Of a DNA stretch of 64,000 nt, positions 22,381-30,379 are shown one piece after another (the stretch's first letter is position 1; each line of letters starts with the position of its first letter). The stretch comes from Elsinoe ampelina (Eukaryota). The notes beneath the pieces are model-generated. The model was given only the letters and a program-made list of their open reading frames with translations, searched no databases and had not been told where the DNA came from. The stretch lies in the NCBI GenBank assembly GCA_010093995.1, contig ML992502.1, positions 1,584,312 through 1,648,311 of the forward strand, in the 5' to 3' direction. Position numbers and translations under genes: made by a program.

Positions 22381-23903
22381 GATGAAGATGGTCGCTCGAG
22401 AAGTGAAAGTGAGGGGATGGCCAACTGGCCTGGAGCTGTGGTGGTAGCTCAAGCAGGTGGTTGACGGGCTCGTTGGTCAGTGTGGACAGTCGCGGTGGTG
22501 AGAGCAAATAATTGTGCCCGGACCGAGCTACTTGTTATGTCGCATCCAGGGAGTGCACCTTGCTCCTATCAGCCTCCTAGTTGACTGTCACGTTTCCATA
22601 CACTCGGGAAAGGCCGGGGTCGCTGCCTCTGTAATTCGCTCCAGTGCCCGATTCTTGTCAATTCAATAATGTACAGCGGCTTGTTTATGCTTGGGTGAGA
22701 TGAATTTAAGGGAGGTCCCAAGATCATCTAGAATACGGACGACGTTGAACCTTCTTGGCGGCTGCTTCTCGGTCTTTGCGCCTGCGATGCGGCTCAACAG
22801 GTCAAGTTTCAGGTCTACGCTAGCACGTAAAGAGGCATGACACGAGGCAAGGGACGGCAACGACACGTAGGGCACAAAGACGGAGCGAAATCGAGCCGGG
22901 ATATCTCCAATATTCATCATGCAAAGCTACATAAATTAACAATGAATGGTTCAAATGGTATCTGCACGAGCAATTAGCACCCGTCCAACATCAACATAAC
23001 AGAAGTGTTGTCGAAGAAGGCTCCTCAGAAAAGCCGATTTACTCCTGCCTCTGCCCCTACGCCCTTCCAGCAGGTCCAAGACGAACAAGCCGGAAGAGTG
23101 CTTGGTAACCAGTAGCGAGAGGCGAGACCGAAGTCAAGCCATTGCTGACTCCACAACCGATCCTCGCCGACAAGCAGCTACGGTATGGGAGCTTGGCCAG
23201 GGCTCAAGGCTCATTGAATGGATAGACTTCTGTCATCATAGAGAGCTGTGGAATGGTCCGATAGAAGGCATGTTCTTACCTTGTTGGAGATGTAGGTCGA
23301 TTTGAAACAAGACTATCTGTCGCTTCGTCAGTACAGAATCGTCATGAGTGGTCAAGCCAGACAGAGTAGTGGAATATGAGAGATCAGACAAGGTAAGCAT
23401 GGTATGTGCTGTCCACATTGGTATTCAGTAGCAGAACTGAAAAGAAAATACCGTCATCATGAAAGGTCGAGTATCAGAGTAGGAAAGAGCGAAAACGTAC
23501 CAAGTGATGAATGCAAAGGATATGCAGCGGTCTACCAAGGGTACCTATTTTATGTCAGCAACCGTCGTCGCCTGTGCTATTCTCTTGCTAAAGTGGTTCG
23601 TTTGTGCTGAGATCAGATGGTAGTGCATGTTGTTCGTGGATCATGAAATCACCGGAACTATTCGTGTTGTGTATTCCTCCTGTAAGACGACTATGTTGAG
23701 TCTTTCGTACGTACCTCGTAATCACACATGCCAGATATCGACACCGGCATGTTCATGTCGAAGAGAAGAAGCAGATCTCGTCCACAGCCAAAATTTCAAT
23801 CGATGCGGCTCTTCTCGCGTAAACCTTCCCATCTCGTTCTCACTTTTTCCGAGCTCCATCACCAATCCCACATCATCCCACCTTACCCTCTCTACACCCA
23901 ACC

Positions 23904-24782
23904 ATGACCGACCGCCGCCGTCTCAATCCCCCAGCAGGCGGCACCTCTGCCCCTCTCTTCGCCAAGTCCCCCGATCCCACACCATCCCGGACCCGACCCC
24001 CCTCACAACCCCGCCGCATCTTCCTCCAAACCGGCCTCGTCCCCTCCGCCTCCGGCTCAGCATACTACGAAACATCCCCCTCCGCTTCCAGCGACAGCTT
24101 CTCCTCCGCCACCTCCTCGCTGAAACTCACCGTCACCGTCCACGGCCCGCGCCCTCTACCTCGACAGACACCTTACTCCCCCACGCTCCTGCTGAACACA
24201 CACGTCAAGTTCGCCCCGTTCGCAACGAGGGTGAGGAGGGGCTACGTCAGGGATGCGGTCGAGCGGGATCTGGGCGCACATCTCGAGACGGCGCTCAGGG
24301 GTGTGATTCTGGCGGAGAGGTTCCCGAAGAGTGCGTGTGATGTGGTGGTTACCATACTCGAAGGGGAAGAGCAGGGAGAGGGGAAGACAGGGGTGGGAGG
24401 AGTAGGGCTTATGAGTGTGCTGGCTGGTGCGATCACGGCGAGTTCGGCGGCGCTGGTGGATGCGGGAATCGATTGTGTGGATTTGGTCAGTGGAGGGGTT
24501 GCGGGAAGAGTCAAGGGGGAGTTGGTGGTTGATCCTGTGCAAGGGGAGCATGAGGGCGTAGAGGCGGTCGGAGTGGTGGGATATCTGCAGAGTAGGGATG
24601 AGGTCACGGAGTTATGGGTGAAGGGAGATGTGGGGGCTGATCCGACCGCATTGGTGGACAAGGCTGTTGAGGCTGCGCAGATGAGCCGGGTTGTTCTCGC
24701 GGCGACATTGAGGAATGCAGTAGAGAGGAAGCTGAAGGAGTCCGCGCAAGAAGCAAACGGCACGGCAGAAGCGACTGGGTGA
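23904..24782 (+). CDS. MTR3: Exosome RNase PH-like subunit Mtr3
   Basis: MTDRRRLNPP, ASGSAYYE, VHGPRP, VKFAPFA, RFPKSACDVVVTILE, AALVDAGI. Confidence 0.88.
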   Translation: MTDRRRLNPPAGGTSAPLFAKSPDPTPSRTRPPSQPRRIFLQTGLVPSASGSAYYETSPSASSDSFSSATSSLKLTVTVHGPRPLPRQTPYSPTLLLNTHVKFAPFATRVRRGYVRDAVERDLGAHLETALRGVILAERFPKSACDVVVTILEGEEQGEGKTGVGGVGLMSVLAGAITASSAALVDAGIDCVDLVSGGVAGRVKGELVVDPVQGEHEGVEAVGVVGYLQSRDEVTELWVKGDVGADPTALVDKAVEAAQMSRVVLAATLRNAVERKLKESAQEANGTAEATG

Positions 24783-24853: not shown

Positions 24854-27746
24854 CTATGACTGAGTAAAGAGGTCATGAAGACTTGGTTCGACCGTCAGAA
24901 GTGCCTCAATATCGGCATCAAAGCCCTCCCCGACAGCCACACGAAGCATCGAGAAGGCCTTCTTGGCCTCTCGACGAGCTACAACGAACCGATCTTGGTT
25001 GTCAGCGTTCGCCATATTCTGCCAGCAGATGCACAAGCATTCCAAGATGTTGGCTTTGCACTCCGCCATCAGCGGCCACGCGTTGCGAATCAAGCTCTGA
25101 AGGGCGAGCAGGGCCAGAGCCATTATGTTGGGACTCGCAACGCTGAATGGATTGCAAAGTATCTCGGTCAGCATTGGAATGATAGACTTCAAATGCTTGA
25201 TGGATTCCAGACCAAGTATGTCTTGAAGAGCAGATAGATTGCGCAAGACAACAGAGATGATCAAAACGTGCTCCGGACAATGGTTGTAAACTGCTAGGAT
25301 GCCCTTGTGCATGATTGTATCAAGAAATTTTGTGCCTTTACCGTCTGGCTTGCCTTCTGCTCTTTGGAAGGCTGTTCTGAAGAGTGCAAAGTAGACCGGA
25401 AACACGTTGTTGAGCAGATCGACAGCTTCATGGTCTGCTGTCAGTGTTGGCAGGTAGCCAAAGCAAGGTCTCAATGCGTCAGCGAAGACATCAAACAATC
25501 CAGTCTTGGCAAGCAGACTCGAAGGTGTCCGTTCGAGTAGAATCGTGAGCAATTCGCACCCTTTGGCTTTGTAGGGGATTTGAAAGTCGTCAATCAAGCT
25601 GAGTATCGGCGGGACAAGAAGATGCCAGTGATGTTCCACCAATCGATCGTCCAGTTGCTGCACTGTCCACGTCAGGATCCCGAGGACTTGATGCTCCTTT
25701 CGCTTCCAAGGCGTCGCCGCTTCTTCATCGAAGCCGATGTCGATCGGTGCAGCTGGTCTGTTTCGAGTGTCTTTACGACCTTGATCCGTTACTCCTTGAG
25801 GTCGATTCTGTGAGAACAAAGGGCGAATCGTCAGCAAGAGAAAATGCTTGACGAGGTCGGCCGCAAGCTCACCGTGAATTTTGCTGTTCTTGACTTGTTC
25901 TACAGCCTCATCAATGCTTTTGTTATCTGGGTTGCGAAGTTGCCATGCCATGATCACATCCAGAGCATCCTTCATCCATGGACCAGGATTGATCCCAATG
26001 GCCTTCGCAAGCTGTTTGCCATCCATGATCGGGCGGAAAGCGTAGGCATCTTCGATTGCAAAGTCGGAAATCTGCTGGAGGAACTTCTGGTACGTTGTTA
26101 TGAAGACTGGAAAGTATCAGCATTGTCTAATCCCAGTGTAGACGCAACATACCCTCGGCCTGGTCAGGCTCTTCTGCGATATCACATAGTAATGAGAACA
26201 AAGTCTGTAGTTTCCAAGTGGGACCCCATCTGCGAATAGACATGCCCAAAGTCTCACGAAGGTCGACATCTTCCAGACGTGGTCGCTTTGGGCGGTCTTG
26301 AAAGGACCTGGCTAAGCTACCGATTTCCTGAACGTTTTTGACTGAAGCAGTGACGATGTCGCATATCTTATTGGTGGCTTTGAAGCCCTCTCTTGCGATG
26401 ACTGTAGCCATGGGAGGAGGTTGCTTCTTTCCTGGTGGAGCCTGTGTCTGAGGTGCACTCCTGTAAGGAATCAGGCATGCGAGAACCCAGGCAGCATATC
26501 TGTCCTCTACATCGAATCCGAAGAGGTCCATAAGGTCCTTCTGGTTTGCTGAGAGCGATTGCATGTTGTGCAATACTTCAGTCCACGACTCCACCTCTGG
26601 ATCGTAGGATGGCGCCCCTGGCGTAGGGTCGCTGAAGACAGTCTTGTAAAGTCCAGCCTCTCTGAGCAGGGTTAGAGCTCTGAAGGGGTCCGGGCCTCTT
26701 AGCATCTTCTCCAGTTCCACACCGACGCGCTCCCTGCTGATCTTCACTTTCAGTGCGGCTTTGATATCCTCATTCGTCATGCTCTGAGCAGCCTCGCGAT
26801 CGATATCATAGCCAAGGCGACTAGCAAACCTGATTAGTCTTAGCACTCTGAGCGGATCATCCTTGAATGTTTGGTAAGGCTCAAGCGGAGTGCGGATGAT
26901 CCGGGCGGCCATGTCATCAAAGCCACGGTCGGTCAGATCTTCAATCTTGCGAGTGTTCAAATTGTAGAACATCGCGTTGATGGTAGCGTCTCGTCGTAAA
27001 GCATCTTCCTCGGGAGTACCAAACTCGATCTGAGGGTTCCGACTATCGTCTGTATACGTTTCCTTCCGAAGGTTGACCAGATCGATGTCCAGCCCAAGAA
27101 TGCGTGTCGTGATGGTTTCCAAATGCTTTGATTTCTCGGGGTTAGCTTCGATCTTGTGAAGACCACCCACGAGCTTGCTCTTGCCGTTGACGCCAGCTTT
27201 GTTGGATTGGGAGTCGGTCTTTGCCACACCGTCAAGACCGTACTTCTCAGCATTGCCGGGACGTTCCAAGTAGTCCTTCATCTGGAGCCCGAACTGCTCT
27301 CCGGTCATGTTGTTAATCGCGACATCAATATCATGGCTGTCGACTCCGAGAAGCTTGTCGCGGACCCATCCTCCGGTGAAACGAAGCACGGTCTGCTCGT
27401 TCGCTAGCTGTGCGGGAAGTGTCACCTGACTATCATGCTTGACAGGAGAAGTCCGTATGAATTCGGCGACGTCCAGAAGCAATGTCCTGAGTGTTTCTTC
27501 CACTTCAGTCAGTTGTAGCTCTAGCTGCCGGAAATTGTTTGTCCGATTGGAGGCCGATCCTGCCGCCATTGTTCGCCGCGTAATCTGCAAGGACTTTTGT
27601 GAGGACTCAGCCGGTAGTCTTGTAAGCTTCGCGTGATGACAGATTGTAGATGCCGAGCTCACGCATCGCACGGTTGTATGAATTGATGATCTGAATCGAG
27701 TCCTTTTCACCAGCGCCCAGGTTACGTTGCAGCGTGGAATTCTCAT
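24854..27746 (-). CDS. CCA1: CCA tRNA nucleotidyltransferase fused in frame to a Tti2-like HEAT domain
   Basis: GGWVRDKLLG, DIDVA, EDALRRDATIN, DDPLRVLRLIRF, ISRERV; 46-nt intron 26152-26107; the CCA C-terminus (PGPWMKDALDVIMAWQLRNP) runs without a stop into PWK..HWHLLVPPILSLIDD..KAKGCELL. In-frame ATGs at 27746 and 27569. Confidence 0.9.
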
Positions 27747-28078
27747 GCAAGAAACGTTGTTGCTAGCATCAAAGAAGACCAATGATTCTTTTGAGGGATC
27801 AACTTTTCTGTAACCTGAGTGCAGTGATTGAGAAATGACCATTCAAAATTTTGGTTGGAGTCACTTTTTGATGCCAAGACGTCAACTGTGGATCTCACAG
27901 GGCATGTGCCCACGGGAACCTCCTTGTGCTTGGAGAGTGCTACACCTCGGCTGCACTCTGACGACCTGATATCTGGCACTTCCGATTCGATCAACAGGCA
28001 CTTCTCATCTTCGCGACTCATGCCAAACAGCCAGAAAGGACGCGCCGCGCTGCCACGTCTGGCAATCAGCAATCTCTC

Positions 28079-30379
28079 ATGAGCTCCGCGGACGATCATC
28101 CCTTGAAATCGAGCCCACCTTTAGACACGACGGAAGCACCTCTACCACCTCCAAAAGATGTCGTCACTACCGATAGACCGAAGAAGCCGTCGATCGATGA
28201 ACTCTCGACTGGCCGCACAATGTCCTCCTCAGCCTCTGTCACGTCATCGACTCTGTCAAGCTCAACCTCACCTCCGATCACCTCAAGATCTTCAACACCG
28301 ACTGTATCAACGCTAGCGGGATCAGTCTTCTCACCCACAGGCTCAAAGTATGACCTTAGATCGAGCACAGGGTCGCCCATTTCGCCCGGGCAGATCGATG
28401 GAGCACCCACTCTGGTAGCCCAAGCATTTGCACCACATGTATCGGTCCTCTCTTCACCAGATTGTGAAGAGCTGTTGCGCCACAAGGGGATTAATGGAGG
28501 ACTCTTGGAACTCTTGCGGCCATTTGGAGAGATGATACCAGGAAGAGTCGTCATTAGGGACAGCACAGGGGTAAGTAAGCCATGGGATGACTTTGGCATA
28601 CGATTCACGGGCATAAAAGATGGTCTTGAAGCGCCGCGGATGGGTCGAAGCCCTTCGGAGTCGAAAGCTGCAGATGGGACAGGAGTTGCCTCGGAGGAGC
28701 ATCGGCCAGCACGGTTACGATCTGGAGGGGATGTCGTTCAGATCGAGCAACTTGTAGAGAGGCACCTGGATGAGCTGAGTGCGGAGGCAAATGTGGACGG
28801 CGAAGATGCGGGCTTATCACCATCGGATCACTCACCATACTTCGGTCTGTATCAAAGGAAGCTGCTGTCAGGTACTGTACTCAGCCCACATGAAACATTT
28901 GCACATCCTGTGGCGCTCGTCATTGCCATCAGCTCGAGAAGTGCTGCACCGATAGAAGATCTCAGGACACTTTACACTAACTCTAATACTGGAGAATATC
29001 GACTACCACCCTGGGTCAACAACGAGTACCTCCGCTATTACGTTCTGGTTCACGATGAAGACTTTGATGATATCAAGAAATCTACGACATTGTACGAGCA
29101 GATGAAGCGCCATTTCGGATTACATTGTCACCTTCTGCGACTGCGCAGCACTCAGTGCCTACCCTCGGATGATGGTGCAACTCTTCTACCTGCAAAAAAT
29201 TGGACTTCCGCAGCCGAGGATCTGTCTGACATGTCTGCAATCGAAGCTGTGGAGGACGATGCTCACACCTTGACATACATCTTCGAATCTGATGCAACAG
29301 CTGTACGCTCCTTTGTCCGTGAGATGGTGACACAATCGATCTTGCCTTCGATGGAGCGGTCCGTTGCAACCTGGAATGATCAAGTAGCTTCTCGGCGGCG
29401 TGGTATTTCCGGCAGATTCATGTCGCTATCAAAGCGCTTTACACCTTTCGGCGGGCGGAGCAATTCGCCATCCACCTCGGGGACAAACTACGATTCTGCA
29501 GGTGGCTTCTACCGCCCAGACTTGCCAGAGGCCATCATGAGAAAATTGGCGGATTATGCAGTCATGCTCCGCGATTACAAGCTTGCTGCGTCGACCTACG
29601 AGATCCTCTGTGGAGATTATAAGAACGACAAAGCATGGCGTTGTTATGCCGGTGCAAATGAAATGGCAGCTGTCACGTCCTTGCTTAGTCAAGGTCCCAT
29701 CTCTGCCCGGGCTCGGAGTGAGACGATTGATACATGGATTGAGAATGCCTACTACTCATACTTCACCCGATGTAACAGCGCTTTCTACTCGCTACGAACC
29801 ATCGTGCTGACTGCCGAGCTCCTCCGAATTAGGGAGGGTAGCGCACTTGACGACGCTGCACGTTGGCTGGCGCGCACCATGGATGACCGAAATATTGGAC
29901 CAGTGGGGCACGCATTACTACTAGAGCGAACCGGATCATATTTTGCACTGAAGAAAGGAGTAGGATCGTTGCACAGCGGCAAGAGGAGACGTAAAGCAGC
30001 ACTTTGGTTTACCCTTGCTGCCAGCGCTTGGTTAGACATGGACAAGCAAGGCCAGGCAGGCAGATGTCTATCACGAGCACTAGAGATATACGACCAGGAC
30101 AACGACGGGCCGCTGCATTTCGACGGCATGCAATACTTCCTGGATCATCTGGGTCGGGCGGTCGAGGCCAAGGGACCCGAGAAGATGGAACCTTTTCCTG
30201 ACGTTGTAGAAGAAAAGGTAGAGCAGATCCAGCAGACGACCGTCGATCAGCGAACGCATAGAAGGAGCGGTAGTCTCGCTGTCGCCACGCCAGCATACGA
30301 TCCGCTCGGTGTGGGGCCGATGACGCCCAAGGTCACCCTGACGGAACGATTAGAAGCAGCTGAGGACGGATTTGAATGA
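28079..30379 (+). CDS. TRS85: TRAPPIII-specific subunit Trs85 (TRAPPC8)
   Basis: SPHETFAHPVA, YLRYYVLVHDED, MKRHFGLHCHLLRL, MRKLADYAVMLRDYKLA, DKAWRCYAGANEM. Confidence 0.9.
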   Translation: MSSADDHPLKSSPPLDTTEAPLPPPKDVVTTDRPKKPSIDELSTGRTMSSSASVTSSTLSSSTSPPITSRSSTPTVSTLAGSVFSPTGSKYDLRSSTGSPISPGQIDGAPTLVAQAFAPHVSVLSSPDCEELLRHKGINGGLLELLRPFGEMIPGRVVIRDSTGVSKPWDDFGIRFTGIKDGLEAPRMGRSPSESKAADGTGVASEEHRPARLRSGGDVVQIEQLVERHLDELSAEANVDGEDAGLSPSDHSPYFGLYQRKLLSGTVLSPHETFAHPVALVIAISSRSAAPIEDLRTLYTNSNTGEYRLPPWVNNEYLRYYVLVHDEDFDDIKKSTTLYEQMKRHFGLHCHLLRLRSTQCLPSDDGATLLPAKNWTSAAEDLSDMSAIEAVEDDAHTLTYIFESDATAVRSFVREMVTQSILPSMERSVATWNDQVASRRRGISGRFMSLSKRFTPFGGRSNSPSTSGTNYDSAGGFYRPDLPEAIMRKLADYAVMLRDYKLAASTYEILCGDYKNDKAWRCYAGANEMAAVTSLLSQGPISARARSETIDTWIENAYYSYFTRCNSAFYSLRTIVLTAELLRIREGSALDDAARWLARTMDDRNIGPVGHALLLERTGSYFALKKGVGSLHSGKRRRKAALWFTLAASAWLDMDKQGQAGRCLSRALEIYDQDNDGPLHFDGMQYFLDHLGRAVEAKGPEKMEPFPDVVEEKVEQIQQTTVDQRTHRRSGSLAVATPAYDPLGVGPMTPKVTLTERLEAAEDGFE

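Follow-up and report, generated by a model that had tools for sequence, protein, structure and literature searches.

What does a cell make from a gene in which a CCA-adding enzyme is followed, in frame and without a stop codon, by a protein of the Tti2 family? The locus that raises this question lies in a 64,000-nucleotide (nt) stretch of Elsinoe ampelina DNA (GenBank assembly GCA_010093995.1, contig ML992502.1), here called the window, and was analyzed at positions 24854-27842 of its minus strand, counted from the first letter of the window. The list of open reading frames (ORFs) of the window has two on this strand, 27842..26127 for the CCA enzyme and 26116..24854 (420 codons), and a 46-nt GT..AG intron (26152-26107) joins them in frame. 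A first-pass annotation made from the letters alone had described the CCA enzyme ORF, the single intron, and an in-frame run-on of about 340 residues judged by eye to be Tti2, giving about 950 residues in total. It had also pointed to a donor-like GTGAGC after a G at the junction, suggested that other filamentous fungi might share the fusion, and left a two-product gene as an option. The ORF, the intron and the run-on are all as it described them, and the unspliced reading of the junction comes to 948 residues from an ATG at 27746 or 889 from an ATG at 27569. Within the exon-2 ORF lie the peptides GKQLAKAIG, PGPWMKDALDVIMAWQLRNP, WHLLVPPILSLIDD, KAKGCELL, and YLPTLT. RNA contigs reveal a further intron at the junction itself, and we consider it probable that this is a two-product gene, in which the spliced mRNA encodes a CCA enzyme and the intron-retaining mRNA a CCA-Tti2 fusion.

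The RNA evidence comes from contigs of four runs in three studies, all identical to the window. The runs are not recorded as RNA, and the contigs were taken as RNA-derived because they skip two GT..AG introns; what we claim from them is the presence of two splice forms and not their ratio. The 46-nt intron (26107-26152) is skipped exactly by contigs in all four runs, and none of the contigs listed for these runs retains it. A 65-nt segment at 25808-25872 is skipped as well in all four. It has GT..AG ends on the minus strand and starts at the flagged GTGAGC (25872-25867, after the G at 25873), which is thus a real splice donor. In run X1 the 65 nt are also found unspliced, in a contig of 122 nt (25779-25900) with a depth of 4.1 versus 6.45 for the spliced path. 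The segment therefore resembles an exitron: it is a GT..AG intron wholly inside an open coding exon, and both spliced and retained RNA forms are present. Since 65 is not a multiple of three, splicing shifts the frame, and the CCA frame stops at 25775-25773, which is where the simple constitutive fusion of about 950 residues fails in all four runs. The spliced product has 561 (ATG 27569) or 620 residues (ATG 27746), ends in KIHESTSRSNGSRS 11 residues past the junction, and lacks Tti2, whereas the retained form reads through to 889 or 948 residues. In the spliced mRNA, the Tti2 frame lacks an ATG ahead of the junction, and its next in-frame Met falls far inside the Tti2 domain. Tti2 can therefore be decoded only from RNA in which the 65 nt are unspliced, and the two-product option of the first-pass annotation matches what the RNA shows.

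The 65 nt bear the marks of an intron and of coding sequence alike. The retained 65 nt encode G82-Q103 of the exon-2 ORF as the helix ELAADLVKHFLLLTIRPLF. In 20 of 20 aligned relatives (35-52% identity), E83, L84, L93, and L95-F101 (LTIRPLF) are invariant, all of them within the 65 nt, and they rank among the best-conserved positions of the protein. An AlphaFold model (mean predicted local distance difference test score [pLDDT] 87.3, predicted template modeling score 0.83) has a single confident helix at 83-101 (block pLDDT 85-89) that coincides almost exactly with the intron-encoded segment. This coding constraint, in alignment and model alike, together with a Pfam Tti2 match that takes in the segment from residue 80 on, leads us to infer that the retained 65 nt are translated. 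The splice signals are written into the same codons: the donor GTGAGC overlaps Gly/Ser-Glu-Leu codons, a branch-like CTTAC or CTGAC overlaps Leu-Thr codons, the pyrimidine tract lies within Arg-Pro-Leu-Phe codons, and the acceptor AG closes a Lys or Gln codon. A metagenome scan yielded 80 related loci which, with the window, make 81 sequences and 65 distinct junction DNA contexts. The junction lies inside one continuous ORF with the CCA C-terminus in 80 of the 81 sequences, L077 being cut by a contig end. The donor GTGAGC is present in 65/65 contexts, and the branch-like position reads CTTAC in 62, CTGAC in two, and CTTTC in one. Measured to the first AG after the Phe codon, the intron is 65 nt long in 61 contexts, 71 in three, and 62 in one, always 2 modulo 3, and the shifted frame reaches a stop within 1-29 codons in 63/65, the other two running off contig ends.

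Codon choice at these positions was counted on 63 contexts against a background of codon use in the same ORFs. The donor Gly is GGT in 45 of 45 (background 23.6%), and where Ser replaces Gly it is AGT in 18 of 18 (12.5%), so that the GT is preserved. The donor Glu is GAG in 63/63 (53.8%), the Leu before Thr is CTT in 61/63 (16.3%), and the Lys at the acceptor is AAG in 41/43 (56.7%). Nearby invariant residues are free in their codon choice, with Pro using four codons and Phe using TTT 36 and TTC 27 times, and a conserved Gly ten codons beyond the intron end is spelled GGT 13, GGG 10, GGC 8, and GGA 8 times. The contexts are related sequences and not independent trials, and at this divergence the flanking synonymous sites are clearly randomized. 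As judged by these codon counts, the splice signals are constrained beyond what the protein needs and are under selection of their own. Only the fused clade has the [G/S]EL and LT residues that underlie the donor and branch-like site; stand-alone Tti2 proteins differ there.

Both products have counterparts in other species. A search for longer proteins returned 110 (776-1291 residues), with Elsinoe batatas as the best match (88% identity), which places the window in the Myriangiales, and all 110 carry both PF01743 and PF10521, which bears out the suggestion that the fusion is shared among filamentous fungi. The strict junction-helix pattern is present in 89 of these models and variants of it in most others. 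The helix is genuinely skipped in the Elsinoe fawcettii model and in two models of Dothideomycetes sp. NU459. The former (P0002, 862 residues, deposited as "Tti2-like protein") drops 26 residues from the same donor (78 nt, window 25872-25795), which keeps the frame but loses the conserved helix; the RNA acceptor here lies 13 nt upstream, giving 65 nt. Such an in-frame 78-nt splice is not among the joints in the RNA contigs, and it seems that the predictor chose it to hold the model in frame.

The A1 profile matches Schizosaccharomyces pombe cca2 (9ns4) at residues 414-474 of 487 and cca1 (9ns2) at 426-486 of 502, and both proteins end 13-16 residues past the last aligned residue of this C-terminal motif match. 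Because they stop so shortly after the motif, the end of the spliced product, 26 residues after WQLRNP, falls at the normal place for a CCA enzyme, while the unspliced reading continues instead. In a search with the catalytic part for proteins of 259-826 residues, 118 of the 120 listed were examined, the known fused P0090 and P0095 being left out. These comprise 92 without the C-terminal motif (exon-1 ORFs or fragments), nine with an internal look-alike, two that continue into the helix, and 15 with the motif but without Tti2, 11 of which end at the junction with short unrelated tails. The CCA-only protein of Cladosporium halotolerans ends in KKH followed by GQTG and a stop, the tail predicted from the DNA of nine metagenome contexts. 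Logan protein P0414 ends in KTTSSKSHSGGS, one residue off the prediction for locus L029. As predicted for Pleosporales-like loci, the proteins of Ascochyta lentis and Coniothyrium glycines have a single residue past the junction, and A. lentis has both a 552- and a 905-residue model. These CCA-only models are predictions or assemblies by others, some of which may have been made without RNA.

A constitutive CCA-Tti2 fusion, in which the 65-nt skip is splicing noise without a product of consequence, is hardly credible. The frame is indeed continuous and conserved, and every database protein returned by the longer-protein search is fused. The RNA contradicts such a fusion, however, in that the spliced form is the assembled path in each run of all three studies. 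Noise also fits poorly with splice signals fixed at synonymous sites in 63-65 contexts, a length of 2 modulo 3 with a close stop, CCA-only proteins in other species that carry the predicted tails, and a spliced end positioned like that of the normal S. pombe enzymes.

The nature of the downstream part was settled by a hidden Markov model (HMM) search, the check that the by-eye assignment to Tti2 called for. Pfam PF10521 (Tti2) matches exon-2 ORF residues 80-326 at E 1.1e-69 (235.5 bits, cut-off 25.2). Positions 132-377 of the A1 profile align to human TTI2 residues 216-442, with E values of 1.5e-9 to 1.3e-8 for the solved chains 9wjy_B, 7f4u_C, and 7ole_J. An open frame of 420 codons with so strong a Pfam match far exceeds chance on sequence grounds. 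A Foldseek search of the AlphaFold model against the PDB was uninformative for membership, since every match was a generic repeat protein of the armadillo/HEAT type (best E 1.5e-3) and TTI2 chains were not among them; family membership rests on the sequence matches above. The domain is not complete. Stand-alone Tti2 proteins of Podospora, Grosmannia, Pyricularia, Piccolia, Trapelia, and Psora have 529-555 residues and a whole domain at about 155-440 (profile 1-279), and stand-alone fungal Tti2 proteins align to the exon-2 ORF only from about residue 88. The fusion is without profile positions 1-32 and the roughly 155-190 residues that stand-alone Tti2 has ahead of the shared region; the missing part corresponds roughly to residues 1-165 of human TTI2. 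This N-terminal region was not found in the 64-kb window by an HMM built from nine sequences and run against six-frame ORFs (best E 0.48). The idea that the N-terminus of stand-alone Tti2 is itself derived from a CCA enzyme was dropped, as BLASTP of P0228 and P0141 against the CCA part of the window gave no similarity (best E 0.47 and 1.2).

Could the Tti2 region then be a decaying remnant, now a long 3′ untranslated region of the CCA mRNA, with a working TTI2 elsewhere? Translation of the major assembled mRNA, the spliced one, ends ahead of Tti2, the Tti2 part has lost its N-terminal third, and the scope of the search leaves room for a TTI2 elsewhere in the genome, all of which such decay would accommodate. 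We nevertheless find a remnant very improbable. The 339 codons are open here, and the junction lies within one continuous ORF in 80 of the 81 related sequences. The Pfam match is strong (E 1.1e-69), the AlphaFold model has a mean pLDDT of 87.3, and 40 columns are invariant across 20 sequences at 35-52% identity, a depth of conservation that requires translation. Moreover, no stand-alone Tti2 from a named Dothideomycete appears among 64 near-length matches, in which the stand-alone forms of Trapelia and Piccolia did appear. Three shorter proteins (P0112, P0113, and P0146; 327-329 residues, beginning MPDYT.., MCTNP.., and MVQ..) were considered as real Tti2 starts and rejected. Each opens with a few unrelated residues and joins the Tti2 sequence right behind the helix, as would be expected of ORFs predicted on spliced contigs of other species, read from an ATG that lies within the CCA coding region but out of frame; the window has no equivalent ATG.

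In the explanation that we favor, one transcription unit would supply two essential products, chosen by splicing of the 65-nt coding intron at 25872-25808. When the intron is removed, the shifted frame stops 11 residues on and gives an ordinary stand-alone CCA-adding enzyme of 561 or 620 residues. When it is retained, the 65 nt would be read as the first conserved Tti2 helix, and translation would continue through the 339 codons to an 889- or 948-residue fusion. The efficiency of splicing would then set the ratio of CCA enzyme to Tti2, and the fusion would supply the cell's Tti2 function in the Tel2-Tti1-Tti2 (TTT) co-chaperone. Such a gene may have arisen from tandem CCA1-TTI2 neighbors by loss of the intergenic region together with some 160-190 N-terminal Tti2 residues, and a splice donor at the new junction would have given the CCA enzyme its stop back whenever it was used.

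The most serious competitor has Tti2 made separately, as a protein of about 365-390 residues, from a short transcript that starts at an internal promoter in exon 2, keeps the 65 nt, and is translated from M31, M48, or M56. The full-length mRNA would always be spliced, and the two genes would overlap rather than be fused. M48 is invariant and M56 nearly so in the 20 fused-clade relatives, and neither position is Met in the Aspergillus and Fusarium models or in S. pombe cca1 and cca2. The retaining contig, 122 nt long, is too short to show where its RNA begins. The two Met residues nonetheless sit inside PGPWMK.ALDVVMAWQL, a motif conserved over its full length, and no transcript start is listed inside exon 2, though contigs cannot show one. 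An overlap depends on frame and intron retention just as the fusion does and explains nothing beyond what the fusion model does, and we judge it unlikely. Contig depth on either side of the junction was rejected as a test for an internal transcript because each contig has a single depth figure.

Several observations weigh against the two-product explanation. Contigs reveal neither the strand nor the ends of a transcript, cannot be used to quantify it reliably, and drop rare variants. The form that retains the 65 nt was assembled in one run of the four, though it may be present in the others; it is a 122-nt bubble, too short to be placed on a full-length mRNA, and could partly be unprocessed precursor. 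The first-pass annotation had counted transcripts with a stop against its fusion, and the assembled major form in all four runs is such a transcript; the fusion survives only for the retaining form. The fusion protein is predicted here from RNA contigs and sequence. The conserved M48 and M56 just upstream of the junction leave room for an internal start. The truncated domain raises its own difficulty. Pal et al. (PMC8278493) report that human GST-TTI2 1-193 brought TTI1 down with it and that fragment 194-508, which was hardly soluble, failed to do so. The truncated Tti2 corresponds by alignment to a protein without this TTI1-binding region, and its function in a TTT complex is not assured. Finally, a second TTI2 gene may exist elsewhere in the E. 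ampelina genome, the stand-alone search having covered database proteins.

The distribution of the fusion bears on its origin. Matches come from many orders of Dothideomycetes and from Xylona (Xylonomycetes), Coniocarpon and Chrysothrix (Arthoniomycetes), Candelaria and Candelina (Candelariomycetes), and Sarea (Sareomycetes), so that the truncated fusion was found in five classes. Among the metagenome loci, all 52 with at least 1800 nt of upstream sequence have the CCA catalytic part there in the same orientation, as do 73 of 79 loci overall. One fused protein of 955 residues (P0041) is labeled Quercus suber and most likely stems from fungal contamination of a plant assembly. Outside the truncated-fusion clade, some Eurotiomycetes and Fusarium models join the CCA enzyme to a complete Tti2 (profile 1-279 plus the N-terminal region with a DPWTT-like motif). 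These joined models have 1001-1291 residues and come from Aspergillus indologenus, A. japonicus, A. uvarum, and A. violaceofuscus (P0237, P0313-P0315), Helicocarpus griseus (P0210), Ascosphaera aggregata (P0110), and Fusarium sp. NRRL 25303 (P0262). They may be neighboring genes merged by the predictor. Real or merged, these sequences place CCA1 and TTI2 adjacent and co-oriented outside the truncated-fusion clade and suggest that the two are tandem neighbors across Pezizomycotina. The joined models resemble the E. ampelina gene in strand, order, and single predicted protein; unlike it, they keep the whole Tti2 and lack a [G/S]EL donor where the CCA part ends.

How does this gene compare with known systems? 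Exitrons are introns inside protein-coding exons that have coding potential and are alternatively spliced, and they have been described in plants and humans. The 65-nt intron is alike in being a GT..AG intron wholly in coding sequence and alternatively spliced. It differs in being conserved across several fungal classes and in acting as a switch between two gene products, and there was no fungal exitron among the papers listed by our literature search. In Saccharomyces cerevisiae PTC7, the intron preserves the reading frame, and its retention merely lengthens one phosphatase. Removal of the intron here changes the frame instead, and on it depends the production of an entire second protein. The two cases are alike in that a retained intron is read as codons, the spliced and unspliced PTC7 mRNAs both being translated into different isoforms (PMC4227748). 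The SKI7/HBS1 gene of fungi likewise yields two proteins of distinct function from a single gene by conserved and ancient alternative splicing (PMC3597508). The SKI7/HBS1 functions are paralogous, derive from one ancestral gene, and are separated by splice-site choice, whereas here two unrelated essential genes have been joined and retention of a frameshifting coding intron is the switch.

The two halves also differ from their stand-alone counterparts. The Tti2 part shares with stand-alone and human TTI2 the Pfam domain and a predicted all-helical repeat fold, but it is truncated N-terminally and attached to a 550-residue enzyme. The CCA part has, like S. pombe cca1/cca2 and S. cerevisiae Cca1, head and RNA-binding domains, the C-terminal motif, and two in-frame ATGs with a presequence-like stretch; unlike in those class II CCA enzymes, its normal stop codon exists only after splicing. 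Taken together, the gene is distinct from its comparators in three ways: it merges two unrelated essential genes, uses a frameshift as the switch, and has splice signals that coincide with invariant codons. Public protein records already show the domain combination. The literature searched contained no published description of the CCA-Tti2 fusion or of its splicing switch.

For annotation, these results suggest that fusion models of about 900 residues and CCA-only models of about 550-600 residues are both real isoforms of one gene and that some models, such as that of E. fawcettii, have been wrongly forced into frame. Fungi have few cases of conserved alternative splicing in which both products are functional, and the gene offers a clean system for asking how an intron stays deliberately inefficient. 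For TTT biology, it provides a natural, enzyme-linked Tti2 without an equivalent of the human TTI1-binding region and so probes which parts of Tti2 are needed. For evolution, the tandem or joined full-length forms (Eurotiomycetes, Fusarium), the stand-alone forms (Sordariomycetes, Lecanoromycetes), and the truncated fusion (five classes) make a datable series of steps. A bolder extension, which we put forward only tentatively and think may well prove wrong, is that in Dothideomycetes and allied classes the sole Tti2 would be the CCA-Tti2 fusion made from intron-retaining mRNA. Splicing would then set the dose of TTT and hence the supply of TOR, ATR/ATM, and Tra1, the CCA body would replace the lost Tti1-binding N-terminal domain, and tRNA maturation would be tied physically to the assembly of phosphatidylinositol 3-kinase-related kinases.

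The coordinates of all parts of the gene are collected in Table 1.

Table 1. Parts of the CCA-Tti2 gene of E. ampelina in window coordinates, with the evidence for each
Feature	Position	Strand	Evidence or remark
CCA-adding enzyme, exon 1 coding region	26153..27746	-	ORF and sequence; from upstream ATG 27746-27744
Second in-frame ATG	27567..27569	-	Matches start of Elsinoe batatas model P0001 (889 residues)
PolyA_pol head (nucleotidyltransferase) domain PF01743	26892..27386	-	Residues 121-285 of the protein from the first ATG; E 1.7e-22
PolyA_pol_RNAbd domain PF12627	26634..26747	-	E 1.9e-8
Constitutive 46-nt intron, GTATGT..CCAG, phase 1	26107..26152	-	Skipped in 4/4 runs; ends CT..AC on the plus strand
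Exon 2a, conserved CCA-enzyme C-terminal part (..GKQLAKAIGINPGPWMKDALDVIMAWQLRNP..KNSKIH)	25873..26106	-	A1 profile matches S. pombe cca1/cca2 C-termini
Alternative 65-nt coding intron, exitron-like, GTGAGC...CTGAC...CACAG	25808..25872	-	RNA contigs and conservation
Branch-site-like CTGAC in Leu-Thr codons of LTIRPLF	25830..25834	-	Conserved position; putative branch function
CCA-only tail after splicing, ..KIH then ESTSRSNGSRS; stop TAA 25775-25773	25773..25807	-	Translation of spliced form
N-terminally truncated Tti2 region, 339 codons (G82-S420 of exon-2 ORF); stop TAG 24856-24854	24857..25873	-	Readable only with the 65 nt retained
Pfam Tti2 PF10521 match, profile 33-278 of 279	25139..25879	-	E 1.1e-69

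The CCA-adding enzyme itself has the features of class II. PF01743 is matched over its whole length (profile 1-126 of 126) with 80.5 bits against a cut-off of 23, and the translation contains GGWVRDKLLGVDSHDIDV (GGWVRDKLLG..DIDV) and EEDALRRDAT. These are the class II motifs GGxVRD..DxD, with the catalytic carboxylates, and EDxxRRD, for nucleotide selection. The 59 codons between the two in-frame ATGs (MRIPRCNVTWALVKRTRFRSS...) are Arg-rich and have no acidic residue for 46 positions. S. cerevisiae Cca1 uses alternative in-frame starts, and by analogy with the yeast enzyme this stretch resembles a mitochondrial presequence. RNA contigs reach 27793-27815, and so both ATGs are transcribed; with two starts and two splice forms, four products are conceivable. 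The furthest upstream ATG of the ORF, at 27842, lies outside every contig. A 3821-nt contig of run X2 ends at 27815 and then has 24 extra letters that look like a sequencing adaptor; this is compatible with a transcript 5′ end near 27815.

The gene is closely flanked on both sides. A convergent neighbor at 23823-24779 on the plus strand carries an RNase_PH domain (PF01138, E 4.3e-18) and probably encodes a subunit of the exosome. About 75 nt separate the end of its ORF from the stop codon of Tti2, and since the 3821-nt contig of X2 extends beyond 24700, the 3′ ends of the two genes may overlap. On the other side, a divergent neighbor at 27962-30376 on the plus strand encodes the TRAPP subunit Trs85 (PF12739, E 1.2e-142), and only some 150 nt lie between the start of its ORF and 27815, where the CCA transcript contigs end, which suggests a short shared promoter region.

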